Shown here in pieces: positions 1,585 through 2,778 of a stretch of DNA of 11,324 bases. The stretch comes from Microscillaceae bacterium (lineage in GTDB: Bacteria; Bacteroidota; Bacteroidia; Cytophagales; Microscillaceae). The notes under the pieces were generated by a model. That model had not been told where the DNA came from. It did no database searches and worked only from the letters and a program-made list of their open reading frames with translations. Within the stretch, counting starts at the first letter, position 1. Every line of letters begins with the position of its first letter. A program made the position numbers and the translations under genes. Where the stretch lies: positions 1 to 11,324 of the forward strand of contig DMHB01000193.1 in NCBI GenBank assembly GCA_003449595.1, in the 5' to 3' direction.

Positions 1585-2778
1585 ACCGCCTTCACACCGC
1601 CCCGTATGCTGGTGCTCGACAACAAATACGATGGTGCTGTTACGCTCAATATTTGGACTGGCTATGCCGTGCTCGTTGTTAGCAAAACCGGTACGCGCAA
1701 GGTAATCGTTGGCCCCGAAAACTATTTGCTGGAATATGACGAAAGCATCGAAGCGATGGAGCTTTCTACTGGCACGCCCAAAAACGAACAAGAAACTCTT
1801 AAAACGGTGTATTTGCGGGTATTGCACAATAAAATTTCTGACATTATCCAAGCCGAATCTGCCGATTTCACGCAAGTGAGCATTCATTTGTCTTACCGCG
1901 TAAACTTTGAAGGTGAGCCTGACAAGTGGTTCAATGTCGAAAACTTTATCAAATTTTTGACCGATCACATGCGCTCGTTTATTAGCAATGTGGTCAAAAA
2001 GCACACGATTATGGATTTCTATGGCAAGGGCATCGAAATTATCCGCGATGCTGTATTGGGCAAAGCCGTAGAAGGAGGCAAACGCACAGGCCGGTTGTTT
2101 GAAGAAAACGGGATGCGTATTTACGACATCGAAGTTTTTGACATCCGCCTCAGCGATACCAGCCTCGAAAACTTGTTGATTGCTTCGCAGCAAGATGTAA
2201 TCAAACAAACCTTGCGCATTGCTTCCGAAAAACGCAAATTGGAGTTTACCCAAGAAAGCGAAGTGATAGCACAACAAATCGCTGAAATTCAATCGCTTAC
2301 CAAGCAAAAGACCTTTCAGTTGCAAAGTCAGGAAACGGTGCGTGAATTGGAATTGCTGATGTCGAAAGCCGATGCCGAAATCAAAGTGCAGCAGAAAAAC
2401 TTGGAGGCCAAACTCGAAGAGCAAGATATTCTAAGCGAAATCAATGCCTCGGAATTGGAACGCAAACGGGAAAATGAAGACCTGCGCCTCGAAATAGCCC
2501 AAAAAGAGTTGACGCAATATTTGGAAGAGCTGCGCGGCGAAGTAGAAGGCTTGGTTTCCAAAGCACAGGCCATCTCGCCGGCTTTGATTTCTGCCCTACA
2601 GGCTTTCGCCGACAAGGCACTGGCCGAGCGTATGGCCGAGTCGATGTCGCCGCTGGCTATTTTGGGTGGCAAGAGCGTGGCCGAAGTATTTTCCAATATG
2701 CTGAAAGGTACTTCGTTGGCCAACGTGGTGCAGCAAAACGGCCAACACCTCAAAGAGCGTAACGAAGACGAAGCGTAA
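277..2778 (+). CDS. mvp: Major vault protein (MVP) homologue, full length, 833 aa
   Basis: Uninterrupted 833-codon ORF. A stop at 271..273 lies two codons upstream of the ATG. The N-terminus (LVLAPNEFAFISDQTKGNINVYVGPYKT) aligns with the animal MVP N-terminus ([28 protein letters not shown]). MVP-repeat-like segments of the form G.E.F..GP..Y.P...VEVV recur (GKTLVIKGENVSFYIPPTGVEVVRD, GDELFITGKDQMIYYPRPEHALVKY). Shoulder-region matches are PRMLVLDNKYDGAVTLNIWTGYAVLVVSKTG, QVSIHLSYRVNFEGEP and RDAVLGKAVEG. A long heptad coiled coil occupies about aa 650-765. The C-terminus AISPALISALQAF...SPLAILGGKS parallels the MVP cap-ring AIGPSTIRDLAVAG. Confidence 0.85.
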   Translation: MNEPNRERDLVLAPNEFAFISDQTKGNINVYVGPYKTSLANTDKPVLFDAVVKRFEKCNLEESIQTFTTAPEGWYIVLKNPARDSQQPKVGTSNNLSDLNIGRKVNIPGPIFFALWPGQMARVIPGHHLRSNQYLLVRVYDEEEARNNWGKAVIKTKTENADENAATTTEQIPDLTMGKTLVIKGENVSFYIPPTGVEVVRDENDEYVREAVTLERLEYCILLDENGNKRFIQGPAVVFPEPTEVFVVRNNARKFKAIELNEMAGLYIKVIAPYEEGGKAYKVGDELFITGKDQMIYYPRPEHALVKYGKKEKHYAIAIPPGEGRYYMNRKTGTIALQRGPAMFLPDPREFVMIRRILSPKQVALWFPGNQEALAYNQKLQELTKSDQFRDFIEANEVESYALEQQEAELMAQSAAIPSKKEKASKQIASEEFTRDTAFTPPRMLVLDNKYDGAVTLNIWTGYAVLVVSKTGTRKVIVGPENYLLEYDESIEAMELSTGTPKNEQETLKTVYLRVLHNKISDIIQAESADFTQVSIHLSYRVNFEGEPDKWFNVENFIKFLTDHMRSFISNVVKKHTIMDFYGKGIEIIRDAVLGKAVEGGKRTGRLFEENGMRIYDIEVFDIRLSDTSLENLLIASQQDVIKQTLRIASEKRKLEFTQESEVIAQQIAEIQSLTKQKTFQLQSQETVRELELLMSKADAEIKVQQKNLEAKLEEQDILSEINASELERKRENEDLRLEIAQKELTQYLEELRGEVEGLVSKAQAISPALISALQAFADKALAERMAESMSPLAILGGKSVAEVFSNMLKGTSLANVVQQNGQHLKERNEDEA
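1597..2148 (+). other. MVP shoulder-like domain (band-7/SPFH-like fold in eukaryotic MVP). Boundaries approximate.
   Basis: Alignment-by-eye to the eukaryotic MVP shoulder: PRMLVLDNKYDGAVTLNIW..VIVGPENYLLEYDE..LSTGTPK..QVSIHLSYRVNFE..RDAVLG. Confidence 0.55.
2149..2775 (+). other. MVP cap-helix coiled coil plus cap-ring-like C-terminal region
   Basis: About 140 aa are charged and heptad-patterned (ELELLMSKADAEIKVQQKNLEAKLEEQDILSEINASELERKRENEDLRLEIAQKELTQYLEELRGEVEGLV). They are followed by AISPALISALQAFADKALAERMAESMSPLAILGG, which matches the eukaryotic MVP cap-ring segment. Confidence 0.55.

Follow-up and report, generated by a model that had tools for sequence, protein, structure and literature searches.

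An MVP orthologue of the Cytophagales with a candidate laterally packing, two-stripe helix and ring-closing tail

The stretch of DNA analysed here, 11,324 nucleotides of contig DMHB01000193.1 (GenBank assembly GCA_003449595.1) from a Microscillaceae bacterium and hereafter called the window, carries a complete gene for a homologue of the vault protein MVP. The gene product is a soluble, full-length bacterial MVP homologue of 833 amino acid residues. We consider it probable that the C-terminal quarter of this Cytophagales orthologue consists of a laterally packing helix with two hydrophobic stripes, followed by a tail that closes a ring. The region concerned, nt 2149-2775, is in frame with the open reading frame at 277-2778 (+) and corresponds to residues 625-833. 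The parts of the gene to which the text refers are the following.

277..2778, + strand: MVP homologue gene, complete, 833 residues, stop codon included (list of open reading frames)
1681..1815, + strand: last vault repeat domain, Vault_3, residues 469-513 (Pfam; beta strands at residues 456-510 with predicted confidence, pLDDT, >90)
1825..2157, + strand: MVP shoulder domain (SPFH2-like), residues 517-627 (Pfam; pLDDT 92-97)
2155..2574, + strand: cap-helix equivalent, residues 627-766, 140 residues (alignment to rat MVP; AlphaFold2)
2575..2580, + strand: S767-P768 hinge that ends the helix, opposite rat G803-P804 (three alignments)
2575..2745, + strand: cap-disk-like conserved tail, residues 767-823, which holds AISPALISALQAF and SPLAILGG (conservation, alignment)
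2746..2775, + strand: variable acidic C-terminal tail, residues 824-833 (conservation, dN/dS)

The mechanism that we propose is as follows. After the SPFH-like shoulder, the chain would form one straight helix of ~140 residues with hydrophobic residues on two opposite faces, by which each copy would pack in parallel against both its left and its right neighbour, and copies standing side by side would build a single-layer helical wall. The chain would then turn at a conserved Ser-Pro hinge, and the highly conserved tail of ~57 residues would interlock with the tails of other copies, closing a ring around the axis.

The long helix and its periodicity

Pfam places MVP_shoulder (PF11978) at residues 517-627 with E=3.4e-29 (101.7 bits vs. 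a cut-off of 25) and Vault_3 at residues 469-513 with E=4e-8 (33.6 bits vs. a cut-off of 28.8), and the single sequence matches the rat MVP chains of the PDB at E=1.7e-14. A profile of 121 bacterial homologues finds rat, human and rabbit MVP at E=1.5e-39 to 1.2e-36, and hhalign aligns the part from the shoulder to the C-terminus with 92 eukaryotic MVPs at a probability of 99.6-99.9%. The AlphaFold2 model built from the 121-sequence alignment has a mean pLDDT of 83.5. A Foldseek search of the PDB with this model has vault MVPs in all of the first 12 places (E 5e-34 to 3e-26). Next after these full-length chains come the murine R1-R7 crystal structures (E=1e-14, TM-score of 0.57-0.60 normalised to the target), and erlin, prohibitin, flotillin, HflK/C, stomatin and QmcA appear as secondary hits at ~1e-6. 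Pfam recognises none of the N-terminal repeats R1-R8 by sequence and finds only Vault_3; the N-terminal vault repeat array is present by structure, as the model matches both the R1-R7 structures and the full-length MVP chains. No NCBIfam model matches the protein. Neither a transmembrane segment nor a signal-like N-terminus was found, the highest 19-residue Kyte-Doolittle mean being 1.14 and located in the C-terminal tail. The chain begins with a polar N-terminus of high conservation, which is modelled with confidence.

The start of the long helix is positioned by the shoulder domain. In three alignments (phmmer, hmmsearch and hhalign), D627 lies opposite rat D647, and I766-S767-P768 lies opposite rat L802-G803-P804; the bacterial helix counts 140 residues vs. 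156 in rat. AlphaFold2 models residues 628-763 as one continuous helix with a pLDDT of 61-83. The run from G612 to G754 is free of Pro and Gly, the probability of which by chance anywhere in the protein is ~5e-4. Charged residues make up 34% of D627-I766 (29 D/E and 19 K/R) vs. 27% of the whole protein, and large hydrophobic residues account for 29% of the helix. A first-pass annotation of the window had described an uninterrupted charged helix of about 140 residues at this place, and these data bear the description out.

The same annotation had called the helix strongly heptad-patterned, which we find not to be the case. We computed the Fourier power of the large hydrophobic residues and scanned the a/d register, using tropomyosin as a positive control that serves solely to validate the method. 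At a period of 3.5 the power is at chance level, both for the query (P=0.63-0.77) and for the family-averaged profile (P=0.95), whereas the identical script returned a sharp 3.5 peak for tropomyosin (P<=0.0005), a canonical coiled coil that otherwise resembles the bacterial helix in being long, charged and free of Pro and Gly. When the sequence is read in windows of 28 residues, a/d occupancy mostly reaches 0.38-0.62 at best, in a register that differs from window to window. The hendecad period of 3.67 is marginal (P about 0.06). As a mechanism of association, the heptad coiled coil is not supported by this pattern and appears to be wrong in detail.

The dominant period is instead 2.25, with P<0.001 in the family profile, where no shuffle reaches the observed power, and P=0.009 in the query. 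Since a frequency of 0.444 cycles per residue aliases to 0.556, or 2 x 1/3.6, this period represents the second harmonic of the alpha-helical repeat, and a second harmonic of 3.6 means two hydrophobic stripes that run straight along opposite faces of the helix. The i/i+2 hydrophobic doublets L655/F657, F680/L682, L691/L693/M695 and L736/L738/I740 are found along its length. The rat cap-helix, with the sequence taken from the alignment and Ala included, is alike in showing nothing at 3.5 and a two-stripe peak at ~2.2 (P=0.016). In the solved vault structures the cap-helices are straight and packed laterally in a single-layer wall, and the bacterial pattern fits this arrangement: two opposite stripes would suit packing against a left and a right neighbour.

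Constraint on the helix, the hinge and the tail

The 833-codon frame is intact in the window and uninterrupted in two independent contigs from other samples, which answers the caveat, raised in the first-pass annotation, that resequencing might reveal frameshifts. These contigs represent one sibling strain or species, with 99% protein and 92.7% nucleotide identity to the MVP of the window, and served to calculate the ratio of non-synonymous to synonymous substitution rates (dN/dS) by the Nei-Gojobori method. The codon differences comprise 166 synonymous and 9 non-synonymous changes, and the dN/dS of the whole gene is 0.016. Residues 627-823 hold 34 synonymous and no non-synonymous changes, which divide into 20 and none in the helix and 14 and none at residues 767-823. 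Purifying selection on the MVP homologue is certain.

Conservation was analysed in 118 homologues with 59-99% identity. The helix is the part of the protein with the lowest sequence identity, 48% vs. about 70% in the rest. Between residues 622 and 821, there are no insertions or deletions in any of these sequences. In a wider set of 227 sequences that extends down to ~40% identity, 173 have exactly the same N611-P768 spacing, and 10 of the 16 other spacings are shifted by whole-turn steps such as 4, 7, 11, 18, 22, 29 or 40 residues (P=0.003, which is indicative only because related sequences are treated as independent). Such freedom of sequence at constant length and phase is what marks a structural strut, the faces of which have to stay in register.

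The Ser and Pro of the hinge are invariant in an alignment of 12 sequences. In the eukaryotic vault, the shell is symmetric up to rat G803 and the cap disk starts at P804; within this disk, identical chains take three different folds in the assembly (PMC12915596). The bacterial hinge is followed by a tail of ~65 residues, in which AISPALISALQAF occupies residues 765-777 (nt 2569-2607) and SPLAILGG residues 791-798 (nt 2647-2670). Across the 118 homologues, no other segment of the protein is as conserved as residues 766-800 (78% identity, entropy of 0.49), yet the pLDDT of residues 766-833 in the monomer AlphaFold2 model is below 52. As the segment under the strongest constraint has so low a confidence as a monomer, we infer that it may fold upon assembly in the way of the eukaryotic cap disk. 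When anchored by the helix, the hhalign alignment with the 92 eukaryotic MVPs extends to bacterial residue ~805 opposite rat residue ~842 and pairs maPLAILGGxS with GLKSTLITDGSS. The last ten residues are of a different kind. Positions 824-833 show ~0-10% identity each and many gaps across the homologues, contain 3 of the 9 replacements and have a regional dN/dS of 0.59; they are not under the constraint seen in residues 767-823.

Taken together, the lack of insertions and deletions in the helix despite its lowest identity, the whole-turn length variants, the two-stripe pattern shared with the rat cap-helix and the most conserved tail with its low monomer confidence point to homo-oligomerisation into a ring or a cage. 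That the protein is under selection to oligomerise, as had been claimed, is a reasonable inference of which one half is firm: purifying selection is established by the dN/dS of 0.016, and oligomerisation itself is plausible on the basis of indirect results.

Comparison with known assemblies and competing explanations

The order of domains is shared with the eukaryotic MVPs of known structure (rat 4V60/4HL8, rabbit 9Z4W, human 9BW5) and comprises beta repeats, the shoulder, a very long helix, a Gly/Ser-Pro hinge and a tail of ~60 residues. The differences are an identity of 12-19%, the length of the helix and an insertion, helical and disordered, at residues 360-455 of the bacterial protein. 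Mammalian MVP forms a closed 78-mer cage with D39 symmetry. A related architecture is found in the SPFH-family cages, in which the SPFH-like domain leads into a long helix, the helices stand side by side in a conical wall, and C-terminal tails close the structure (PMC12915596). HflK/C, QmcA, stomatin, flotillin, prohibitin and erlin, all at Foldseek E-values of ~1e-6, share the SPFH-like domain and the long helix with our protein. However, these cages are membrane-anchored and have no N-terminal repeat chain, whereas the protein of the window has no hydrophobic anchor and matches MVP far better.

Much closer relatives have been described before. Daly et al. (2013, PMC3762200) listed bacterial MVP homologues including Microscilla marina A1ZGE7 and Flexibacter litoralis I4AHY9 and predicted in silico that these two fold as MVP and dock laterally via the shoulder and the cap-helix. 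The same bacterial proteins and their TolA-like coiled coil were discussed by Sokolskyi (2019, bioRxiv 10.1101/872010). A1ZGE7 is 68% and I4AHY9 (Flexibacter, now Bernardetia; 'Shoulder domain protein') 66% identical to the protein of the window over 97-98% of its length, and both have the same architecture, the same helix length and the same AxSPxLxxALQAF...PLAILGG tail. The window comes from a different, uncultured species, and the best database relatives of its MVP are 71-75% identical. The nearest named relatives belong to the Cytophagales, including Microscillaceae, Bernardetiaceae and Raineyaceae.

Several observations weigh against the reading of the C-terminal quarter as a laterally packing helix with a ring-closing tail. 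The pLDDT of the helix reaches only 61-83, and the periodicity argument is an indirect one. Six of the 16 spacing classes are out of phase with whole helical turns. As the helix is 16 residues shorter than that of rat, the geometry of the cap must differ. The tails compared alone keep the register of the anchored alignment, with an hhalign E of 0.033 and a probability of 1.6%. Hence, of the earlier description of a cap-ring-like segment, the two motifs, the position and the alignment of the hinge stand; by sequence, the likeness between the tail and the eukaryotic cap disk is marginal and not significant when taken alone, and homology of the two is only weakly indicated. Finally, an experimental vault-like particle from any bacterium was not found in the literature searched.

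The alternative that shares most with our reading is that the module does oligomerise, as an SPFH-type dome or ring on a membrane, the nucleoid or another surface, or as a much smaller cup, and not as a closed vault of two halves. It is in agreement with the secondary structural matches to the erlin, prohibitin, flotillin, HflK/C, stomatin and QmcA domes, with the 16-residue deficit in helix length and with the modelling of Asgard MVP homologues as 10-mer cups (PMC12962969), and for the region in question it overlaps with the explanation that we prefer. However, there is no transmembrane or hydrophobic N-terminal anchor, the N-terminal repeat region is full length and matches R1-R7 (E=1e-14), the alignment covers the MVP chain in its entirety, and the N-terminus is both highly conserved and confidently modelled. 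We regard such a dome or cup as unlikely. A canonical left-handed coiled coil with heptad repeats, in which small bundles (dimers or trimers) would form via an a/d hydrophobic core, is considerably less probable still. The helix is indeed long, unbroken and rich in E, K, Q and L, so that a predictor driven by composition, COILS for example, would probably give it a score, the eukaryotic region has traditionally been called a coiled coil (van Zon 2002, as cited in PMC3762200), and there is a local periodicity of 3.6-3.7 at residues 739-780 (P=0.003-0.02). Such a bundle is at odds with the chance-level 3.5 power in query and family profile under a script that detects tropomyosin, with a best register that keeps changing at mostly 0.38-0.62 a/d occupancy, and with a dominant second harmonic of 3.6, which corresponds to two stripes and not to one seam.

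If the helix were a rigid spacer or stalk, in the manner of a single alpha-helix domain or of TolA domain II, it would present the conserved tail to a partner and would not mediate self-assembly. The high charge, the i/i+3 and i/i+4 pairs of opposite charge (22 vs. 15.4 expected, P=0.03) and the likening of bacterial MVP coiled coils to TolA domain II (Sokolskyi 2019) speak for such a stalk, and a molecular ruler would also be conserved in length. However, large hydrophobic residues constitute 29% of the helix at conserved positions on two faces, which is costly for a lone helix exposed to solvent and unlike the single alpha-helix domains dominated by E, K and R; the single alpha-helix reading was rejected because of these residues. 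Moreover, TolA is not matched in Pfam at E<=0.1 nor in NCBIfam, and the homologous helix of rat is known to pack laterally. The reported similarity to TolA is most simply one of shared composition, and we rate the spacer as very improbable. The last alternative, that the gene is the decaying remnant of a horizontally acquired eukaryotic MVP, can hardly be entertained. We found no point that supports it, and the identity to eukaryotic MVP is low (12-19% in structural alignments). It is refuted by the intact frame and the dN/dS of 0.016, and full-length orthologues occur throughout the Cytophagales and beyond, with 648 clusters (50% identity) at E<=1e-30. The first-pass annotation was thus right to treat the gene as other than a relic.

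Setting of the gene, family spread and meaning

Two parts of the protein ahead of the last vault repeat differ between homologues. At 1354-1641 (residues 360-455), between the beta-repeat array and the last vault repeat, there is a helical insertion with helices at residues 360-366, 371-386 and 395-413, followed by a linker of low confidence (pLDDT <50 at residues 417-436); insertions of variable length occur around residues 404-407 across the family. This element may be the counterpart of the helix-bearing R8 of eukaryotic MVP. The other is a disordered loop at 745-813 (residues 157-179), where many homologues insert up to ~32 aligned columns after residues 161-163. The repeat array is otherwise rigid, and the loop is a variable one at its surface.

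The MVP gene looks monocistronic, with a divergent gene upstream and, downstream, the following element.

2801..2832, + strand: terminator-like hairpin of 12 pairs followed by a T-run, 23 nt past the stop codon (consensus scan)

The hairpin suggests that the gene ends its own transcript; in the consensus scan, which was the only method used, the region holds no more terminator-like sites than are expected from shuffled sequence. The neighbours in the window are ordinary chromosomal genes, which encode a dienelactone hydrolase (DLH), an FkbM methyltransferase, a GDPD protein, a SnoaL-like protein, an S8 peptidase and a thioesterase. The peptidase gene at 5872-9183 (-) encodes a secreted subtilase (S8) of 1103 residues with PKD domains and a C-terminal sorting domain of type IX secretion. 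This protein, like the set of neighbours as a whole, speaks for a Bacteroidota genome as the origin of the window. S8 peptidases with ~30% identity are also close to the MVP gene in five other loci, which is probably a coincidence. The partial reading frame at 1-135 (-) on the left edge of the window is the start of a WbqC-like gene. On the sibling contig, WbqC, a family-2 glycosyltransferase and a methyltransferase form a polysaccharide-modification cluster upstream of and divergent from MVP.

Across 44 related genome loci, we found no conserved gene neighbours or operon partners of MVP. The sole recurrent 'neighbours' in these loci are antisense shadow reading frames within the MVP gene itself. 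Two of this kind are present here, at 1483-2424 (-) with 313 residues and at 2328-2753 (-) with 141 residues, and similar ones recur in related loci. They are most simply explained as shadows of the E/K/Q/L-rich codon usage of the sense strand and not as genes. Rfam gave no match to vault RNA, Y RNA or any other RNA family in the window, and neither TEP1 nor vPARP nor vault RNA is evident near the gene within the window. The MVP homologue matches no PADLOC defence model and no PHROGs phage family.

The bacterial-type MVP family comprises 1328 clusters (50% identity) at E<=1e-3, and the best 150 cluster matches listed are nearly all full-length with 41-65% identity. Full-length bacterial-type MVPs are also encoded by sequences labelled 'uncultured phage', namely LR756501.1 / LR756503.1 (735,411 bp) at 17200-19611 (-) and LR756500.1 (462,018 bp) at 20958-23387 (-). 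These huge-phage proteins, from genomes of 462-735 kb, are 42.5% identical to the protein of the window over 98-99% of its length; they lie on phage genomes, whereas the gene of the window stands among ordinary chromosomal genes and has no phage family match. MVP genes of phages have been reported so far only for two gut Caudoviricetes (bioRxiv 10.1101/2023.11.10.566534). Homologues with 38-42% identity are found on contigs of 133-151 kb that were binned as Saccharibacteria, Lachnospiraceae, Oscillospiraceae, Eubacterium and Methanobrevibacter, and four of these contigs share a downstream neighbour of 279 residues. The similar sizes of the contigs and the implausible spread of hosts suggest that they are mis-binned genomes of large phages or plasmids.

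The central idea of this work is already in print, as close relatives and a prediction of their assembly were published in 2013, and the gene described here is one of hundreds of equivalents. What is added is a correction, in that the helix lacks a heptad pattern and has two stripes like the real cap-helix, together with a quantitative account of the constraint on it in terms of periodicity, dN/dS and the phase of insertions and deletions. These results leave the classification of the family unchanged. They do show the bacterial MVP family to be far larger than the literature states, with at least 648 clusters at 50% identity.

A wider hypothesis, which we hold to be possible without giving it better than even chances, is that this protein alone suffices for the Cytophagales, and for the huge phages with the same gene, to make true closed cages of the vault type in the cytoplasm. 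The two-striped helix and the tail with its Ser-Pro hinge would be used as they are in eukaryotic vaults, but the cap would be shorter and the minor components known from eukaryotes would be missing. What vaults do and where they come from are questions of long standing, and in reviews the particles are still called exclusive to eukaryotes. The gene of the window is a clean, strongly constrained, stand-alone bacterial MVP and is suited to direct expression and imaging. If the hypothesis is true, vaults would have been invented by prokaryotes and would represent a class of nanocompartment new to bacteria.

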